Of a stretch of 64,000 nt of DNA, positions 2,359-20,187 are shown piece after piece; position 1 is the first letter of the stretch; each line of letters starts with the position of its first letter. The DNA is from an uncultured Veillonellaceae bacterium (GTDB lineage Bacteria > Bacillota > Negativicutes > Selenomonadales > Selenomonadaceae). Both the position numbers and the translations under genes were made by a program. The stretch covers positions 4,028 through 68,027 of the forward strand of contig CACYDT010000106.1 in assembly GCA_902773295.1 (NCBI GenBank), in the 5' to 3' direction. Below the pieces are notes generated by a model. The model worked only from the letters and a program-made list of their open reading frames with translations. It was not told the origin of the DNA and made no database searches.

Positions 2359-2388
2359 AAAACCGGCCTGCAACAGAACACAGGCCGG
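2359..2388 (-). terminator. Intrinsic terminator, minus-strand orientation
   Basis: 8-bp GC stem ccggcctg (2363-2370) / caggccgg (2381-2388) with a 10-nt loop. On the minus strand it is followed by UUUU (plus-strand aaaa 2359-2362). On the plus strand no U-tract follows. Confidence 0.65.
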
Positions 2389-2703
2389 TCTAACCGTGAA
2401 TCGACATAAAGAATAACCTCAGGTTCGCTTGTTCGTTCTTCCTGATGACAGTGCATCAACGCTTCCATATAGCCTCAAGTCCGCAAGAGCCAAACTCCTG
2501 CCCCTCTTTGCCTCAATGGACATTTCCTCATTCCAAAGTGGGCACTCATCAGTCCGTCCGAAGGGAATTCTGTCCGTCAAGCATCAATAGACATCCACCC
2601 TTTCCGCTACCACCAGAGAAGAGCCTGTTTCGGCTACCGCTGCCGCACGCCTTGCCTCACCGGACTGCAGCCCTGCGGCTCACTGGTCGATCCCCTCTTT
2701 ATA
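2359..2703 (-). ncRNA. Candidate orphan non-coding RNA of about 345 nt, class unknown
   Basis: Bounded by a near-consensus sigma-70 promoter (2710-2738, minus) and an intrinsic terminator (2359-2388, minus). No convincing ORF on either strand. It is divergent from the flagellin 1 promoter. Confidence 0.5.
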
Positions 2704-2709
2704 TTTCAT

Positions 2710-2738
2710 ATTATATCATAACTTTGGAGGCTTTGCAA
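2710..2738 (-). promoter_or_regulatory. Sigma-70-type promoter TTGCAA-N17-TATAAT (minus strand)
   Basis: Plus-strand ttgcaa at 2733-2738 is its own reverse complement. A 17-nt spacer runs 2716-2732. attata at 2710-2715 is TATAAT on the minus strand. Confidence 0.6.
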
Positions 2739-2846: not shown

Positions 2847-4286
2847 ATGGCGATGGTAGTGAAGAATAATATGTCGGCAGTCAATACGCTGAATACGCTC
2901 AATGCGAATAACAGTCAGATGTCGAAGTCGTTGAAGAAGGTGTCTTCGGGCATGCGGATCAATTCCGCAAGTGACGGGACTTCGGAATATGCCTTTTCCA
3001 TGCGCCTGCGTTCCTTGGAAGGGGCGTATGGGCAGGACATCGATAATGCGAAGAAGGGAAATGATCTGGTATCGGTTGCGGAAGGTGGGATACAGGTAAT
3101 TATTGATATCATGCGCGAAATGAAGGCAATGGCGCTCAATTCCGCAAATGATTCGAACACAGATTTGGATCGCCAGACATTGCAGAAGGATTTCGCGAAG
3201 CGCATGGAAGTGATTTCGGATATTGCTGCTACGACGAACTATAACGGAAAATTGTTATTGAATGGAGACTATGCTCGCCCGGGCAATGTTCAACCTGTGC
3301 CGGGAACACCCAATACTACCGTGAGGAAGATGACATCTGCTTTTTCGCCGTCCACTGGCACAACAGAAGTCAGACCTCCCGGAAAAAGTAACGGAGGGAG
3401 TGGATATGTTACGGATAAGGCTTTTGTTGCAAAGAATGGATCGCAGGCTGCAGCGTATGTGGATTTCTCTGGGGCGCAAATCGCAGGGGTATTGCCGGAT
3501 GCGTTGCATGATCAGGGGTTTGTGATATTGTGCGGGACATGCGATCAGTACATAGGTTTTAAGTTTGATGCGAAAACAACTGAATCGACGAATGTTTCAC
3601 AAAGCGGAAGCAGTGGTGAGTTCGTGATTGGGATAAAAAATGTAACTGACATAAATGACTTGGCTAAAGCAATCTACGAGGGGCTTAAGAGCATACAGCC
3701 TTCAGCAGCTGATGCAACATACCCTACAGCAGTACAAATAAATAGCAGTCATAATGTTCGTATTGCTCAGGATCCTAGTAATCCCAATAAGTATGTTATC
3801 GTAAAACAGACAAGTTCTAGCAGTTATTTGCAGTTTTATGACAGGGGGCGCATTGATGAACGACTTCCAGTTCCGGAGGATGAGAAAATAAGGCCGCCTT
3901 TGATTATCCACACAGGCCCAAAGCAGAACCAGTATGTCCCAATATATATTAACAGCATGTCCCCAATTGCCATGGGGTTGAACGTGGCATCGGTGAGCTC
4001 GCGTAACCGTGCGATTGCTGCTATTACCTATGTGGATTGGGCATTGGAATATGCTTTGGATGAGCAGACTTTCATGGGTTCCTATCGCCAGCGTCTCTTT
4101 GAAGCGGAGGAAAATCTGGTAACGGCGCAGGAGAATACGACAGCTACCAAGAGCACCGTTCAGGATGCGGACATGGCGAAGGAGATGGTGACCTACACGA
4201 AGAACAACGTCCTCAGCCAGACCGCCCAGTCCATGCTTTCCCAGGCCAACCAGAACAGCAGCGGGATTTTGGATCTCCTGCAGTGA
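2847..4286 (+). CDS. fliC: Flagellin, copy 1 (479 aa)
   Basis: Canonical D0/D1 ends: MAMVVKNNMSAVNTLNTLN...LKKVSSGMRINSASD and ...DADMAKEMVTYTKNNVLSQTAQSMLSQANQNSSGILDLLQ. Unique central domain. SD GAGGAG upstream. Confidence 0.95.
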   Translation: MAMVVKNNMSAVNTLNTLNANNSQMSKSLKKVSSGMRINSASDGTSEYAFSMRLRSLEGAYGQDIDNAKKGNDLVSVAEGGIQVIIDIMREMKAMALNSANDSNTDLDRQTLQKDFAKRMEVISDIAATTNYNGKLLLNGDYARPGNVQPVPGTPNTTVRKMTSAFSPSTGTTEVRPPGKSNGGSGYVTDKAFVAKNGSQAAAYVDFSGAQIAGVLPDALHDQGFVILCGTCDQYIGFKFDAKTTESTNVSQSGSSGEFVIGIKNVTDINDLAKAIYEGLKSIQPSAADATYPTAVQINSSHNVRIAQDPSNPNKYVIVKQTSSSSYLQFYDRGRIDERLPVPEDEKIRPPLIIHTGPKQNQYVPIYINSMSPIAMGLNVASVSSRNRAIAAITYVDWALEYALDEQTFMGSYRQRLFEAEENLVTAQENTTATKSTVQDADMAKEMVTYTKNNVLSQTAQSMLSQANQNSSGILDLLQ

Positions 4287-4389: not shown

Positions 4390-4938
4390 ATGCTGGACAT
4401 GTTGGAGGAAGAGCATGAATTGATCAACGGCGAGGAAGTCTTGCTGGCGGCAGCGAGCTTGCCTCATCTGGGGATACAAAGGAATATGTCAAGGGTGATC
4501 GGCAACTATCTTCGCGGCAAAAGGTGCAGCTTGTTCACAGAGGCAAGGGTGGTATTTGATGACAAGAACTGGTTCCAGCCGGATGTGCTGGTAATATGCG
4601 ATAGGAGCAAGATGAGGTTGAACCACATCGAGGGGGCTCCGGACTTCGTCGCGGAGGTTCTTTCCCCCACCACGAAGTTCCGGGATCTGGGGATCAAGAA
4701 GGATACCTATGAGAGGTTTGGCGTGGGGGAATACTGGGTGGTGGATCCCCTGGCAAGGGATGTGACGGTGTACCTGCTTCGGGACGGGAAATACGAGCTC
4801 GACTATGTTTACCACAGCTACTCGGAGGAGGAATGGGAGGGGCTTACGGAAAAGGAGAAGTCCCAGCAGAAACTCGCGTTGAAGCTCAGCCTCTACGATG
4901 ATTTGGTGATTCCGGTGGAGGAAATCTTCGAGGAATGA
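4390..4938 (+). CDS. Uma2-family (DUF820) putative endonuclease
   Basis: Typical Uma2 pattern: ...FQPDVLVICDRSK...GAPDFVAEVLSPTT...D...K...Y...GV.EYWVVDP. Confidence 0.75.
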   Translation: MLDMLEEEHELINGEEVLLAAASLPHLGIQRNMSRVIGNYLRGKRCSLFTEARVVFDDKNWFQPDVLVICDRSKMRLNHIEGAPDFVAEVLSPTTKFRDLGIKKDTYERFGVGEYWVVDPLARDVTVYLLRDGKYELDYVYHSYSEEEWEGLTEKEKSQQKLALKLSLYDDLVIPVEEIFEE

Positions 4939-5045
4939 GCAAAGCAGCCTTTCCCGTTACGGGGGAGGCTTTTTTCTCAAGGAGGAATTTCCTTGACGAG
5001 GCTTTCCGGATAGTATATACTTAGGATATACAAGAGGCGGGAGGG
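4939..5045 (+). repeat. Terminator-plus-promoter cassette, copy B
   Basis: gcaaagCagcct..ggaggcttttttct, about 17 extra nt, then TTGACG (4993-4998)-N17-TATACT (5016-5021). Related to copy A at 4287-4380. Confidence 0.6.
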
Positions 5046-5051
5046 ATTTTT

Positions 5052-5300
5052 ATGGTGGCCACTGCCATACAAAGATGGGGAAACAGTCAGGGAATCAGGG
5101 TTCCCAAGTATTTGCTGGATGCATTGAAATGGAGCCGGGATGAGAAAATAACGATTCATGCGAAGGACAACCGATTGATTATTGAGCAGGCGATACCCGG
5201 AAGGCATCCGAGCATCGAGGAATTGTTCGAGGGGTTTGATGGCGAGTACAAGCCGGTTGAGATTGGATGGGGTGATCCGGTGGGGAGGGAAGCATGGTAA
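5052..5300 (+). CDS. mazE: MazE/PemI-type antitoxin (AbrB/SpoVT fold)
   Basis: MVATAIQRWGNSQGIRVPKYLLDAL is the classic MazE N-terminus. 82 aa. Overlaps the toxin gene by 7 nt. Confidence 0.85.
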   Translation: MVATAIQRWGNSQGIRVPKYLLDALKWSRDEKITIHAKDNRLIIEQAIPGRHPSIEELFEGFDGEYKPVEIGWGDPVGREAW

Positions 5301-5629
5301 AGCAGGGGGATATCATTTGGGTGAATTTCAATCCGCAGAAGGGGCATGAGCAGGCAGGCTATCGTCCGGCACTGGTCGTCAGCAACAATTTTTTCCATGC
5401 AAAAACAAGGCTGGCCATTGTGTGCCCTATCACCAGTACGGACAATGCGTTTCCGTTGCATGTTCCTCTCGATGAAAGGACGGATACCGCCGGATATATC
5501 CTGTGCGAGCATGTCAGGACATTGGATTTGGAGGCAAGGCCGCATCGCTTTGTGGAACGTTTGCCGATGGATCTTCTGGACAGGGTTTGCAATATATTGT
5601 TTGCGGAGATGGAAATCAAGGGCGAATAG
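5294..5629 (+). CDS. mazF: MazF/PemK-type endoribonuclease toxin
   Basis: GDIIWVNFNPQKGHEQAGYRPALVVS...CPITS are PemK/MazF signatures. 111 aa. Confidence 0.85.
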   Translation: MVKQGDIIWVNFNPQKGHEQAGYRPALVVSNNFFHAKTRLAIVCPITSTDNAFPLHVPLDERTDTAGYILCEHVRTLDLEARPHRFVERLPMDLLDRVCNILFAEMEIKGE

Positions 5630-5642
5630 AGAGGAGCGAGCA

Positions 5643-6479
5643 ATGAAGCGTCTTGTGATCATTCGCGGCGGGGGGGAGCTTGCCACGGCTGCCGCAATTT
5701 ACCTGCATAATTCCGGGTTTCGGGTGCTGGTGCTGGAGAAGCCACAGCCTACGTCCATACGGCGGGAGGTTTCCTTTGCCGATGCCGCCTATGACGGAAA
5801 GAAGTCCATCGCCCGTGTGGAGTGCCGTCTGGCGGATTCTCCCAAGGAGGCGGAGAAGCGGCTGAAAAATGAGGAAGTGGTCATGCTCATTGACCCCAAG
5901 GGGAGGTGCATCCCCGATTTCAAGCCGAAGGTGCTCATGGATGGCATCATGGCCAACGAAAACCGGGGAACCTCCAAAGGCATGGCAGAGCACACCATTG
6001 CCCTGGGGCCTGGCTTCTGCGCTGGGCGGGATGTGGATGCGGTCATCGAGACCATGCGGGGGCACAATCTCGGGAAAATCATCTATGAAGGATATTCCTA
6101 TCGCGATCAGGGAAAAGCCAGCCTGGTGGATGTTGCCGGCGCCTTTGGGCGCCTGATCTTTGCGCCGGAGGAGGGAAAGTTTGAGGGCCTATATCATATT
6201 TCCCATAAGATGCAGAAGGATGAGCCTGTGGCCAGGCTTCATAAAGAGGATGGAAGCGTCATGGAGATCCGGACGCAGACCAGCGGCGTCCTTCGCGGCA
6301 TCGTGCATAGCGGCTGCACGGTGAAGGCAGGGCAGAAGCTCGTGGACATCAATCCCGTCATGAGCCGCGAGGATTGCTTCCGGCTTTCCGACAAGGCGCG
6401 GTGCGTTGCCGGTTCCGTGCTGCAGGCGGTCATGGCCTGGGAGAGCAAGAAGCGGAAGCGCATCAGCTTCGATTTTTAG
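5643..6479 (+). CDS. yqeB: YqeB-family protein (accessory protein of the selenium-dependent molybdenum hydroxylase system)
   Basis: The internal ATG at 5643 (MKRLVIIRGGGELATAAAIYLHNSGFRVLVLE) is in frame with listed ORF 5346..6479. The upstream part of that ORF overlaps mazF and is not coding. Rossmann-like start and length fit the YqeB family as I remember it. Confidence 0.55.
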   Translation: MKRLVIIRGGGELATAAAIYLHNSGFRVLVLEKPQPTSIRREVSFADAAYDGKKSIARVECRLADSPKEAEKRLKNEEVVMLIDPKGRCIPDFKPKVLMDGIMANENRGTSKGMAEHTIALGPGFCAGRDVDAVIETMRGHNLGKIIYEGYSYRDQGKASLVDVAGAFGRLIFAPEEGKFEGLYHISHKMQKDEPVARLHKEDGSVMEIRTQTSGVLRGIVHSGCTVKAGQKLVDINPVMSREDCFRLSDKARCVAGSVLQAVMAWESKKRKRISFDF

Positions 6480-19469: not shown

Positions 19470-19507
19470 GGAACTGTGTTCCGAATCTTTGATATGGAGG
19501 CATGGCA

Positions 19508-19954
19508 ATGAGAAAGGTCAATACGGTACGTTTTGGCGCAATCGAGATCGATGAGAGCAAGGTCGTTCGTTTCGAGCAGGGGATTCCTGCGTTTGAGGAT
19601 GAGCATGAGTTTCTCATCATTCCCTACGATGAAGCAAGTCCTTATGTATTCCTGCAATCCCTTTCGACTCCCGATCTGGCATTTCTCATGACCATGCCGT
19701 TCATATTCTTTCCGGAATATGAGTTTGAGGTAGACGATGACTCCTTAGCGCGATTGGGCATCAAGGGACAGGATGAGCTCCTGATTTATGTTCTCCTTAC
19801 TTTGCCGGGGGGCAGGGTCCAGGAGATGACGGCGAACCTCATGGCTCCCGTCATCATCAATACGACGAACATGCAGGCACGCCAGATTGTGCTGGACAAG
19901 AGCCGGTACAACACCAAGCACCGCCTGTTCCCGGAAAAGAAGGAGGCGGAGTAA
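19508..19954 (+). CDS. fliW: Flagellar assembly factor FliW
   Basis: FEQGIPAFEDEHEFLIIPYDEASPYVFLQSL..PDLAFLMTMPF.FFPEYEF is typical FliW. GGAGG is 7 nt upstream of 19508. The listed ORF starts at 19502. Confidence 0.9.
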   Translation: MRKVNTVRFGAIEIDESKVVRFEQGIPAFEDEHEFLIIPYDEASPYVFLQSLSTPDLAFLMTMPFIFFPEYEFEVDDDSLARLGIKGQDELLIYVLLTLPGGRVQEMTANLMAPVIINTTNMQARQIVLDKSRYNTKHRLFPEKKEAE

Positions 19955-20187
19955 TGCTTGTACTCACGAGGAAGCCGCGCCAGCAGATCATGATTGGCGA
20001 TGACATTGTCATCAATGTTGTGGAAGTGCAGGGGGACAATGTTCGCATTGCCATAGATGCGCCGAGAACGGTGAAGATTTATCGGGGCGAGATTTACCGG
20101 GCAATCCAGGAAGAAAACAAGAAGGCCGCCGTCGTTCCGGCAGGCAGCATTGATTTGAGTTCCGTATTGCCGAAGCAGAATCCGTAA
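19954..20187 (+). CDS. csrA: Carbon storage regulator CsrA (flagellar FliW-partner type)
   Basis: MLVLTRKPRQQIMIGDDIVINVVEVQGDNVRIAIDAPRTVKIYRGEIY. ATGA-type junction with fliW. Confidence 0.95.
   Translation: MLVLTRKPRQQIMIGDDIVINVVEVQGDNVRIAIDAPRTVKIYRGEIYRAIQEENKKAAVVPAGSIDLSSVLPKQNP

Follow-up and report, generated by a model that had tools for sequence, protein, structure and literature searches.

A candidate gene for a structured non-coding RNA of about 345 nt that separates a flagellin-glycosylation operon from a flagellin gene in rumen Selenomonadaceae

The DNA between a TibC-like flagellin-glycosylation operon (a TibC-like heptosyltransferase, a radical-SAM enzyme and a sugar kinase) and a flagellin gene raises the question of whether its minus strand carries a gene and, if so, whether the product is a protein or an RNA. 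The locus lies in the window, by which we mean the whole stretch of 64,000 nucleotides that was analysed. A stand-alone ncRNA gene should have its own promoter, conserved across relatives, an intrinsic terminator in the same orientation and a covariation-supported structure with no conserved frame; a protein-coding gene or pseudogene should show a frame that is kept among relatives, or resemble a protein family. The first-pass annotation had proposed a stand-alone minus-strand ncRNA, and this proposal is supported by conservation, minus-strand covariation, the lack of any coding match and the broken reading frames described below. We consider it probable that the locus is a genuine gene for a structured ncRNA of about 345 nt, and that this RNA represents a new, uncatalogued family. 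The elements that delimit it are as follows.

2359 to 2703, minus strand: predicted transcript, a candidate structured ncRNA of about 345 nt (homologues in L049, L009, L002/L047 and L048; identity figures; consensus fold)
2710 to 2738, minus strand: sigma-70-type promoter with −35 TTGCAA at 2738-2733, a 17-nt spacer and −10 TATAAT at 2715-2710 (site scan and conservation)
2359 to 2391, minus strand: intrinsic terminator with a 13-pair stem at 2391-2360, the 3′ arm of which runs into UUUU at 2362-2359 (fold energy, compensatory changes and U-tails)

The minus-strand TTGCAA-N17-TATAAT reported earlier is present at 2738-2710, and its −10 element is extended by TG (TGATATAAT, 2718-2710 of the minus strand), which places the predicted transcription start near 2703 on that strand. 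With 10 of 12 matches plus the TG, it scores highest among the sigma-70-like sites of the first 6 kb; the scan of these 6 kb returned 6 sites against 5.1 expected, and is by itself not above chance. The promoter is significant because its elements are conserved, not because of the scan count: the −35 sequence (TTGCAA or TTGCCA), the 17-nt spacing and TGnTATAAT are kept in the window, L049, L009 and L002, and the letters of the spacer vary. The locus thus has a promoter of its own that is conserved across relatives. An invertible promoter element was also considered and was discarded, as there are no flanking inverted repeats.

At the other end of the predicted transcript, the first-pass annotation had described an 8-bp GC hairpin followed by UUUU. 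Both the hairpin and the UUUU are present, with a core of CCGGCCTG/CAGGCCGG at 2363-2388, but the stem has 13 pairs rather than 8. On the minus strand the hairpin has a folding energy of −21.8 kcal/mol (z = −4.5), as compared with only −16.9 kcal/mol on the plus strand, and the hairpins of the homologues range from −24.9 to −29.3 kcal/mol. Compensatory changes are found in the stem, from C-G to U-A in L002 and from A-U to G-C in L009. U-rich tails are confined to the minus strand; L002 and L048 have the strongest, that of the window is short and that of L009 is poor. No U-tract lies on the plus side of the hairpin in any of the five homologues, so that the lack of a plus-orientation U-tract claimed earlier holds in all of them. 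A simple terminator scan missed the hairpin because its U-tail has just four residues and its loop 6-10 nt. The locus thus carries an intrinsic terminator in the same orientation as its promoter, and this terminator probably also ends the convergent TibC-like operon.

A homologous region was found in four other rumen Selenomonadaceae lineages, namely L049, L009, L002/L047 and, in part, L048. In every one of them the ncRNA is convergent with the TibC-like gene, ends in a terminator 0-30 nt away from the stop codon of TibC and, wherever the contig extends to one, adjoins a flagellin gene; the distance between the ncRNA and the flagellin promoter varies by 67-100 nt. This fixed location suggests a function connected with flagellin or with its glycosylation. 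No copy of the ncRNA follows the TibC-like gene in L003-L008, L010 or L011, a set that includes the close relatives L007 (92% TibC identity, on a short contig) and L008 (71%); therefore, the ncRNA is dispensable or mobile. An nhmmer profile run against all 49 loci and the whole window gave no more copies. Elsewhere, an 18-mer of an invariant block had three chance matches and no homologue in JGI metagenomes, two blocks scanned against viral contigs gave 19 chance matches and none, respectively, blastn against plasmids and phages found no homologue, and flagellin-based look-ups (P0125 and P0128) returned flagellin arrays that lack the ncRNA. As far as these comparisons reach, the family is restricted to a small clade of about five lineages of rumen Selenomonadaceae. 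Our literature search found no relevant description of an ncRNA from Selenomonas or from a flagellin locus.

How strongly the region is conserved can be judged against the neighbouring gene. The ncRNA of the window is 81, 75 and 68% identical to those of L009, L002 and L048, whereas the four-fold degenerate sites of the adjacent TibC-like gene are 47, 54 and 39% identical (overall identity of the gene, 0.71, 0.70 and 0.66). Upstream of the −35 element the sequences are not alignable and carry insertions of 67 nt in L049 and about 100 nt in L002. The window and L049 are 96% identical, and their few differences are scattered over the 5′ leader, a junction, a loop, the 3′ linker and the terminator loop, with no pair of the main fold broken. 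Conservation in relatives had been named earlier as a check on the ncRNA, and the segment proves to be conserved clearly beyond the level seen at neutral sites of the adjacent gene; judged from these alignments, purifying selection acts on the region.

The pattern of conservation also indicates that the region is non-coding. Variable segments lie between blocks of 25-26 nt that never change, and their indels of 1, 2, 7 and 13 nt break every frame; no frame longer than 5 codons is conserved. Four ORFs of the region have no Pfam match, and a search of 5.8 billion proteins, the translated search suggested earlier, returned no coding homologue or pseudogene, the sole match being a spurious ORF from a near-identical (95-96%) copy of the locus. 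Thus neither a conserved frame nor similarity to a protein family was found. The first-pass annotation had described the short ORFs as lacking convincing ribosome-binding sites. This is not so for the 5-codon ORF at 2407-2390, which is preceded by a Shine-Dalgarno-like GAGGU. The 62-codon ORF (2468-2280) has no start codon in L009.

If the region encodes an RNA, then its structure should have left a trace in the alignment. The minus-strand consensus fold (−101.95 kcal/mol) has 108 pairs, 16 of which are changed on both sides, as compared with −65.05 kcal/mol and 8 such pairs for the plus strand. The fold comprises the following elements.

2615 to 2698, minus strand: 5′ domain (consensus fold)
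2698-2691 with 2622-2615, minus strand: P1, which encloses the P2-P3 arm and P4; in L002, G-C becomes A-U and G-U becomes G-C
2687-2669 with 2651-2636, minus strand: P2-P3 long arm, with a 7-nt indel in its variable tip, the sequence of which is replaced in L002
2634-2623, minus strand: P4, an invariant hairpin, GCC-GAAACA-GGC (consensus fold)
2561 to 2602, minus strand: P5-P6 domain, containing a 26-nt block identical in the window, L049, L009 and L002
2602-2598 with 2565-2561, minus strand: P5, the pairs of which never vary (placed by energy alone)
2593-2589 with 2575-2571, minus strand: P6, with an invariant 13-nt loop, AUUGAUGCUUGAC; its pairs never vary (placed by energy alone)
2434 to 2560, minus strand: central domain (consensus fold and compensatory changes)
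2560-2542 with 2454-2434, minus strand: P7, a long-range helix; CUGAUGA/UCAUCAG becomes UCGGUGA/UCACCCA in L009
2524-2506 with 2479-2458, minus strand: P8-P9, enclosed by P7; a compensatory A-U to G-C change in P8
2501-2483, minus strand: P10, a hairpin enclosed by P7, which differs in sequence and length among the window, L009, L002 (GAAA loop) and L048 and is always a hairpin

Among three sequences, 97.4% of the cells are paired, as compared with 37-47% when the partners are slid, and the 16 double-sided changes compare with 6.7 ± 2.0 in shuffled alignments (0 of 500 reached 16) and 1-5 in slid ones; these statistics come from 4-5 independent lineages, one of them partial, and hence are of low power, and the fold was tested on the very sequences from which it had been derived. 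A six-row alignment gave the same covariation picture. The fold of the single sequence is no better than that of shuffles (z = −1.2), and P3, P4, P5 and P6, which never vary, are neither supported nor refuted by covariation. Covariation and G-U pairs both favour the minus strand. Base-pair covariation, another of the checks proposed at the outset, thus supports the predicted minus-strand fold, in few lineages and with the limited power just described, and the region combines this with the lack of a conserved frame.

Does the RNA belong to a known family? None of the 4227 models of Rfam 15, a set that includes RNase P, tmRNA, 6S, SRP, T-box, cobalamin, c-di-GMP, raiA, ROOL, OLE, GOLLD and HEARO, matched the 64-kb window at the gathering threshold. 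Relaxing the threshold to E ≤ 10 for positions 2250-2900 gave noise from eukaryotic miRNA and lncRNA models alone (best E-value, 1.2), and the homologues L009, L047 and L048 shared no recurring family. ARAGORN, run on the window, predicted neither a tRNA nor a tmRNA gene. The negative outcome of the earlier comparison with RNase P, tmRNA, 6S, SRP, cobalamin and T-box signatures was borne out. Two resemblances were pursued and dropped. For a T-box leader there was no RF00230 match even at E ≤ 10, and the T-box-like string GGUGGUAGCGG of the window is not conserved, reading GAUGUUUGCGG in L009. In a hammerhead-like CUGAUGA...GAAA arrangement, the GAAA is not conserved and the CUGAUGA is one strand of P7.

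Taken as an RNA gene, the locus would work as follows. The near-consensus sigma-70 promoter with its extended −10 would start minus-strand transcription near 2703, and the GC-rich hairpin and U-tail would stop it at about 2359, abutting the convergent TibC-like operon at its 3′ end. The RNA would fold into the P1-P4 5′ three-helix domain, then into the P5-P6 hairpin presenting the invariant 13-nt loop, then into the P7-P10 central domain closed by the long-range helix, followed by a mostly unpaired 3′ linker with a Shine-Dalgarno-like motif and a 5-codon ORF that reaches the terminator. We infer that the functional product is the terminated RNA. A search for pairing of the invariant loop with targets in the window returned the locus itself only, and no conserved pairing of the ncRNA with the flagellin leader was found. 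By analogy with the orphan RNAs raiA and OLE, the invariant loops (P6, the GAAACA of P4 and the GAGGCUAUAUGGAA segment) might bind a protein or a ligand, a possibility that we hold tentatively and at slightly less than an even chance.

The orphan large structured bacterial ncRNAs, which include raiA motif RNA, OLE, ROOL and GOLLD (PMC5737381, PMC10861870, PMC12286853), offer the closest comparison that we considered. Like them, the candidate is a stand-alone gene with its own predicted promoter and terminator, is several hundred nt long with a multi-helix fold, has invariant loops and junctions between variable hairpins, and has no coding capacity and no function evident from its sequence; like ROOL, it comes from rumen bacteria. 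Unlike them, it has a fixed genomic site, with a glycosylation operon on one side and a flagellin gene on the other, and it matches none of their Rfam models. It is smaller than OLE, ROOL and GOLLD, and it occurs in about five lineages of one family, whereas raiA occurs in thousands of species. Few bacterial RNAs of more than 300 nt have an intricate fold under selection, and these have historically proved to be ribozymes, cores of ribonucleoproteins or sophisticated sensors. A folded RNA of this size that has no match in Rfam 15 is a concrete candidate for new RNA biochemistry, and its site by flagellin and an unusual glycosylation operon provides a testable connection with motility and the glycosylation of the cell surface in bacteria that abound in the rumen. 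Its wider importance is uncertain, given the few uncultured lineages that carry it and its absence from close relatives.

Other explanations of the locus have to be weighed against a stand-alone ncRNA gene. One is that the region is a decayed gene, a small-protein gene or neutral DNA, in which the promoter is a chance match and the hairpin is merely the terminator of the TibC-like operon. Sigma-70-like matches do occur at chance frequency in this sequence, a 106-codon ORF is present on the plus strand, gene callers annotated ORFs here in L009 and L049, and the hairpin could stop the plus-strand operon. However, conservation far exceeds that of the four-fold sites next door, the indels break the frames, no protein family or homologue was found beyond the near-identical copy, the promoter elements including the TG are conserved, the minus strand alone has the U-tail, and it is also the strand favoured by covariation and G-U pairs. 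We therefore reject the decayed gene remnant that the first-pass annotation had left open, and regard this whole group of explanations as very improbable. Another is that the RNA is a CsrA sponge that regulates flagellin translation. As with CsrB/RsmZ, it is non-coding and of similar length, its genome has csrA (fliW and csrA are encoded in the window at 19502-19954 and 19954-20187), and it adjoins a gene of a CsrA-regulated type, flagellin; the RNA is also G-rich, with 11-13 GGA triplets, including GGAUGU. Unlike CsrB/RsmZ, it shows no enrichment of GGA, the counts of 12 (window), 13 and 11 (homologues) comparing with 10.3-10.5 in dinucleotide shuffles (10.3 ± 2.2 for the window, with L009 and L002 similar), and no repeated GGA hairpin loops. 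Most of the GGA triplets lie in stems or are unconserved, and at the position of the second GGAUGU the window has GAAAUGU and L048 has GCAUGU. In Firmicutes-type systems, moreover, the antagonist of CsrA is the protein FliW and not an RNA. We find a sponge hardly credible.

A third explanation, which we judge unlikely although less so than these two, centres on the 3′ linker and is that the locus is a conditional attenuator: the structured domain would be a sensor, and bypass of the terminator would yield an antisense RNA through the TibC-like and radical-SAM operon that lowers its expression. The relevant elements are as follows.

2390 to 2433, minus strand: 3′ linker, with an invariant GAGGUU at 2420-2415, a variable spacer of constant length, AUG, four codons and a stop
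2407-2390, minus strand: 5-codon ORF, the stop of which runs into the terminator stem (GAGGUU-N7-AUG conserved in five lineages)
2426-2416 with 2407-2398, minus strand: P12, a weak hairpin (covariation GAA/UUC to AGA/UCU)

Antisense-acting riboswitches have precedents in the S-box of the Clostridium acetobutylicum ubiG operon and in the Listeria B12 riboswitch/AspocR (PMC2566862, PMC9943018). In these, as here, a convergent promoter, a structured RNA and an intrinsic terminator are found just past the last gene of the operon. Because the terminator lies just beyond a convergent operon, read-through would yield an antisense RNA. Consistent with attenuation, the 3′ end of the ncRNA stays within 0-30 nt of the TibC stop everywhere, in contrast to the varying distance to the flagellin promoter. 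The arrangement differs from the antisense riboswitches in that the RNA has no known aptamer and no findable antiterminator pairing, and read-through is hypothetical; its structured part, of about 280 nt, is also larger than usual aptamers and matches no known riboswitch. The best complements of the 5′ arm of the terminator lie 270 nt away, are GC-rich and fall in non-homologous columns, so that no antiterminator is conserved.

Bypass could come from a ribosome on the 5-codon ORF, the stop of which abuts the stem, such that the 5′ arm of the hairpin would be covered by the ribosome. Attenuators of the ribosome-mediated kind, which have short leader ORFs, include pyrBI/pyrE, cat/erm and the ABC-F resistance leaders, and the locus resembles them in a Shine-Dalgarno-like motif and a very short putative ORF, placed such that a ribosome at its stop would lie over the terminator 5′ arm. 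The Shine-Dalgarno-like GAGGU lies 8 nt upstream of the ORF in all lineages, and GAGGUU, the fixed-length spacer, the AUG, the four codons and the same-column stop (UAG, UAA, UAA, UAG and UGA) recur in all five. The peptides are MSIHG (window, L049 and L009), MPIYG (L002 and L047) and MVIHT (L048). In L049 the substitutions GGU to GGA and UAG to UAA keep the peptide and the stop, the other strand has no conserved ORF, and no stable conserved structure is predicted over the linker. On the other hand, the change of AUU-CAC to AUC-UAC is compensated by an upstream change of GAA to AGA in P12, which may pair the Shine-Dalgarno-like motif with the AUG, and this covariation explains part of the variation in the ORF. 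Because the stop-codon purines are themselves paired with the U-tail, RNA structure alone explains much of the pattern, and the mini-ORF is only weakly distinguishable from constraints of structure. Another 5-codon ORF, just as well conserved, falls within the invariant block of P6 but lacks a properly spaced Shine-Dalgarno motif; therefore, such ORFs can arise by chance. The locus also departs from ribosome-mediated attenuators in that the mini-ORF stands at the end of a 300-nt structured RNA, not within a short leader, and no protein-coding gene follows the terminator. Were both parts to hold, the locus would represent a new class of regulatory RNA, in which a sensor of about 280 nt and a ribosome-gated terminator switch between the terminated product and an antisense transcript, so that a new ligand- or protein-sensing RNA would control flagellin glycosylation through antisense transcription; we think this more doubtful still than conditional attenuation as such. 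Past the terminator, the minus strand holds just the antisense of the TibC-like gene and no gene to control, and the 654-codon minus-strand ORF found there is a shadow of the plus-strand genes.

The 515 nt between the end of the TibC-like heptosyltransferase gene (2331) and the start of the flagellin gene (2847), read directly from the sequence, lie in a flagellar and glycosylation region and are predicted to encode, on the minus strand, a structured ncRNA of about 345 nt (2359-2703; "the RNA"). Radical-SAM enzyme and TibC-like genes lie upstream of it; flagellin, Uma2 nuclease and MazEF genes lie downstream, followed farther on by genes for a GT41 glycosyltransferase, acetolactate synthase, FlgN, FlgK, FlgL, FliW, CsrA and FliD. 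The strand antisense to the radical-SAM enzyme and TibC-like genes contains a 654-codon ORF (409-2373, minus), rich in R, H, P and L, and a similar ORF of 456 codons is present in the homologous locus L002; the 654-codon ORF is most probably no gene but a shadow ORF cast by the GC-rich coding strand.

The TibC-like protein has its relatives among Selenomonadaceae from goat and cattle gut metagenome assemblies, and the following loci carry the RNA.

L001, metagenome contig: flagellin identical to that of the window, RNA copy identical
L049, 848-nt contig with only the 3' end of the TibC-like gene: RNA copy 96% identical
L009, Logan assembly: TibC identity to the window 72%, RNA copy complete
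L002 and L047, from a goat rumen genome and another assembly, with three differences between them: TibC identity 66%, RNA complete
L048, contig end: TibC identity to the window 60%, 3' two-thirds of the RNA only

L049 was located via a spuriously called ORF. RNA and TibC-like gene converge in every homologue, with the terminator 0-30 nt from the TibC stop codon, and a divergent flagellin gene adjoins it wherever the contig extends far enough. No RNA was found downstream of the TibC-like gene in L008 (71% TibC identity), L003-L006, L010 and L011, or in L007 (92%), where a different sequence fills the 286 nt to the contig end. Nor was a second copy found in the window, or any copy in JGI metagenomes, viral contigs, plasmids or phages. 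Given these absences, the predicted RNA is a rare element of patchy distribution. By TibC, L007 is the nearest relative; the unrelated sequence after its TibC-like gene (3981-4266) has a promoter-like site, GGAGG, a 31-codon hydrophobic ORF (MRDFVLAVMANIAACGVVKCLELLITLIMGN, ~4068-4163) and then a hairpin, and has the look of a type I toxin-like gene or of one for a small membrane peptide. The Uma2-family nuclease gene and MazE/MazF toxin-antitoxin pair (4390-5629) directly follow the flagellin gene; their absence from the homologous loci L002 and L008 points to a variable island.

The first-pass annotation had proposed a minus-strand promoter for the RNA, and direct reading confirmed it: TTGCAA (2738-2733), a 17-nt spacer and TATAAT (2715-2710), the latter preceded by TG and hence an extended −10 (TGATATAAT, 2718-2710, minus). 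A consensus scan ranked it as the top site of the first 6 kb (10/12 matches plus TG). Sites with at least 9/12 matches are not commoner there than in shuffles (6 versus 5.1), so the match alone is little proof. The −35 (TTGCAA or TTGCCA), the 17-nt spacing and TGnTATAAT are common to the window, L049, L009 and L002, while the n and the spacer sequence vary; the predicted promoter is conserved as a signal. It lies back to back, as had been described, with the flagellin promoter, a conserved sigma-28-type element (TAAG-N15-GACGATAT, 2763-2789, plus). Directly upstream of the −35 the sequence is unalignable, with insertions between the two promoters of 67 nt in L049 (~646-712) and ~100 nt in L002 (~5620-5710), so that close promoter spacing is not essential.

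At the 3' end, the hairpin reported earlier (CCGGCCTG/CAGGCCGG, 2363-2388) is lengthened by G-U and A-U pairs to a minus-strand stem of 13 pairs (2391-2360). Its folding energy is −21.8 kcal/mol (z = −4.5) on the minus strand and −16.9 kcal/mol on the plus strand, where UCUAACCG stands in place of a U-tract, again as reported. Only four U follow on the minus strand, which is why a simple terminator scan did not list the hairpin. Across the homologues the stems range from −21.8 to −29.3 kcal/mol (z = −4.5 to −8), with compensatory changes (C-G to U-A in L002, A-U to G-C in L009) and U-rich tails confined to the minus strand (UUUUAUUUUG in L002, UUUGCUUUUUGUUUAUUUU in L048; L009 is a weak exception). 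The putative terminator is conserved as a signal. A 16-nt direct repeat (13/16 identical) limited to the window/L049 lineage lies either side of the hairpin (GTGATTCCGCATAAAG, 2328-2343; GTGAATCGACATAAAG, 2396-2411), one copy overlapping the TibC stop codon and the other a 5-codon mini-ORF; it may be chance or a recombination trace.

The proposed segment proved to be conserved in relatives, with identities to the window of 0.81 (L009), 0.75 (L002) and 0.68 (L048). For the adjacent TibC-like gene the corresponding values are 0.71, 0.70 and 0.66 overall, and 0.47, 0.54 and 0.39 at four-fold degenerate sites. Conservation comes in blocks: GCGGCAGCGGTAGCCGAAACAGGCT and GGATGTCTATTGATGCTTGACGGACA do not vary at all, and the stretches between such blocks, which do vary, contain indels of 1, 2, 7 and 13 nt, so no reading frame survives. 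None of four ORFs put to a translated search, the 106-codon one of the plus strand among them, had a Pfam match, and a search of 5.8 billion proteins with ORFs of the region returned solely the near-identical L049 copy; a 62-codon ORF considered earlier has no start codon in L009. Judged by these comparisons, the region is under selection and not coding.

RNAalifold gave −101.95 kcal/mol for the minus strand (108 pairs, 16 with both sides changed) versus −65.05 kcal/mol for the plus strand (83 pairs, 8 with both sides changed). The minus-strand model contains the following helices.

P1, 2698-2691 with 2622-2615, minus: closes the 5' domain
P2-P3 arm, within P1, minus: long, variable tip
P4 hairpin, within P1, minus: invariant, loop GAAACA
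P5-P6, 2602-2561, minus: presents an invariant 13-nt loop
P7, 2560-2542 with 2454-2434, minus: long-range helix enclosing P8-P9 and the variable hairpin P10

Standard pairs form in 97.4% of cells in the three full-length sequences and 95.8% in six rows, and in 37-47% and 36-47%, respectively, when partners are slid by 1-3 columns. Both sides changed in 16 pairs of the full-length set (shuffles 6.7 ± 2.0, 0/500 reaching 16; slid partners 1-5) and in 15 pairs, 25 cells, of the six rows (shuffles 10.5 ± 1.9, 5/500 reaching 15; slid partners 0-7), the covariation being tested on the same sequences that gave the structure, from only four or five lineages. The single-sequence fold was not better than shuffles (z = −1.2). 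The clearest evidence for the predicted fold is P10, which reads GCAGGAG-UUUGG-CUCUUGC in the window, ACGGGG-UUCU-CCCCGU in L009 and GGCGCG-GAAA-CGUGCC in L002, with a longer stem in L048. In P7, CUGAUGA/UCAUCAG of the window becomes UCGGUGA/UCACCCA in L009. The window and L049 differ at few positions, which lie in the 5' leader, one junction, one loop, the terminator loop and the 3' linker. Three copies of the motif AUGUCNAUUGA/AUGUCNAUUCA are present in the RNA on the minus strand, in P6 (2577-2594), P8 (2506-2524) and the 3' linker (2398-2407), the P6 copy forming an invariant 5-codon ORF (MSIDA); they may reflect internal duplication or competing pairings with several GGAC(A) segments.

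As had been surmised, the RNA matches no known family: no Rfam 15 family reached threshold across the whole window (best E = 1.2 within 2250-2900), and ARAGORN found neither tRNA nor tmRNA there. The RNA did not pass the tests for a tmRNA, a T-box or a CsrB-like RNA. Transcript detection aside, the predicted RNA shows the generic features of an ncRNA gene. It resembles in kind the orphan structured RNAs raiA, OLE and ROOL (PMC5737381, PMC10861870, PMC12286853), matches none of their models, and is rated a candidate new family within that kind, its interest to RNA biologists tempered by narrow distribution and few known sequences.

The favoured reading, to which we give not quite an even chance, takes it for a stand-alone structured RNA that would bind a protein or a small molecule by way of its invariant loops. 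Elsewhere in the window the invariant loop has no complement, and a search for pairing with the flagellin leader yielded nothing conserved. The main alternative, which we consider unlikely, is a conditional terminator, read-through of which would send an antisense transcript into the glycosylation operon. Clostridium acetobutylicum has a convergent layout of this type in the S-box that lies downstream of its ubiG operon (PMC2566862; such layouts are surveyed in PMC9943018); no conserved antiterminator was found in the RNA. The 3' linker (2390-2420, minus) bears on this alternative. Alifold on four lineages found no stable structure between P7 and the terminator, and the strand opposite has no conserved ORF. 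Within the linker, GAGGUU (2420-2415), which is invariant, is separated by a spacer, constant in length and variable in sequence, from an AUG that is likewise invariant and is followed by four codons and a stop (MSIHG-UAG in the window, MSIHG-UAA in L049 and L009, MPIYG-UAG in L002 and L047, MVIHT-UGA in L048). In five lineages the stop falls in one and the same alignment column. It extends into the terminator stem, whose 5' arm would be covered by a ribosome positioned at the stop. Several observations caution against a firm reading of this ORF. Short ORFs of this sort can arise by chance, judging by one of 5 codons, MSIDA (2594-2577), in the invariant P6 block that is just as conserved and lacks usable Shine-Dalgarno spacing; the L002 change AUU-CAC to AUC-UAC is compensated upstream by GAA to AGA (helix P12); and the stop-codon purines pair with the U-tail. 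The pattern may represent a ribosome-gated terminator or a by-product of RNA structure.

The RNA's tight, conserved abutment on the TibC stop codon, as against its variable distance from the flagellin promoter, mildly favours a tie to the glycosylation operon. A CsrA sponge is not supported (GGA counts of 12, 13 and 11 versus ~10.4 expected), and the flanking inverted repeats of an invertible switch were not found. Farther along the window, fliW (150 aa) and csrA (77 aa) share a single base (19502-20187) downstream of flgN, flgK and flgL, an order that corresponds to a Bacillus-like partner-switch arrangement.
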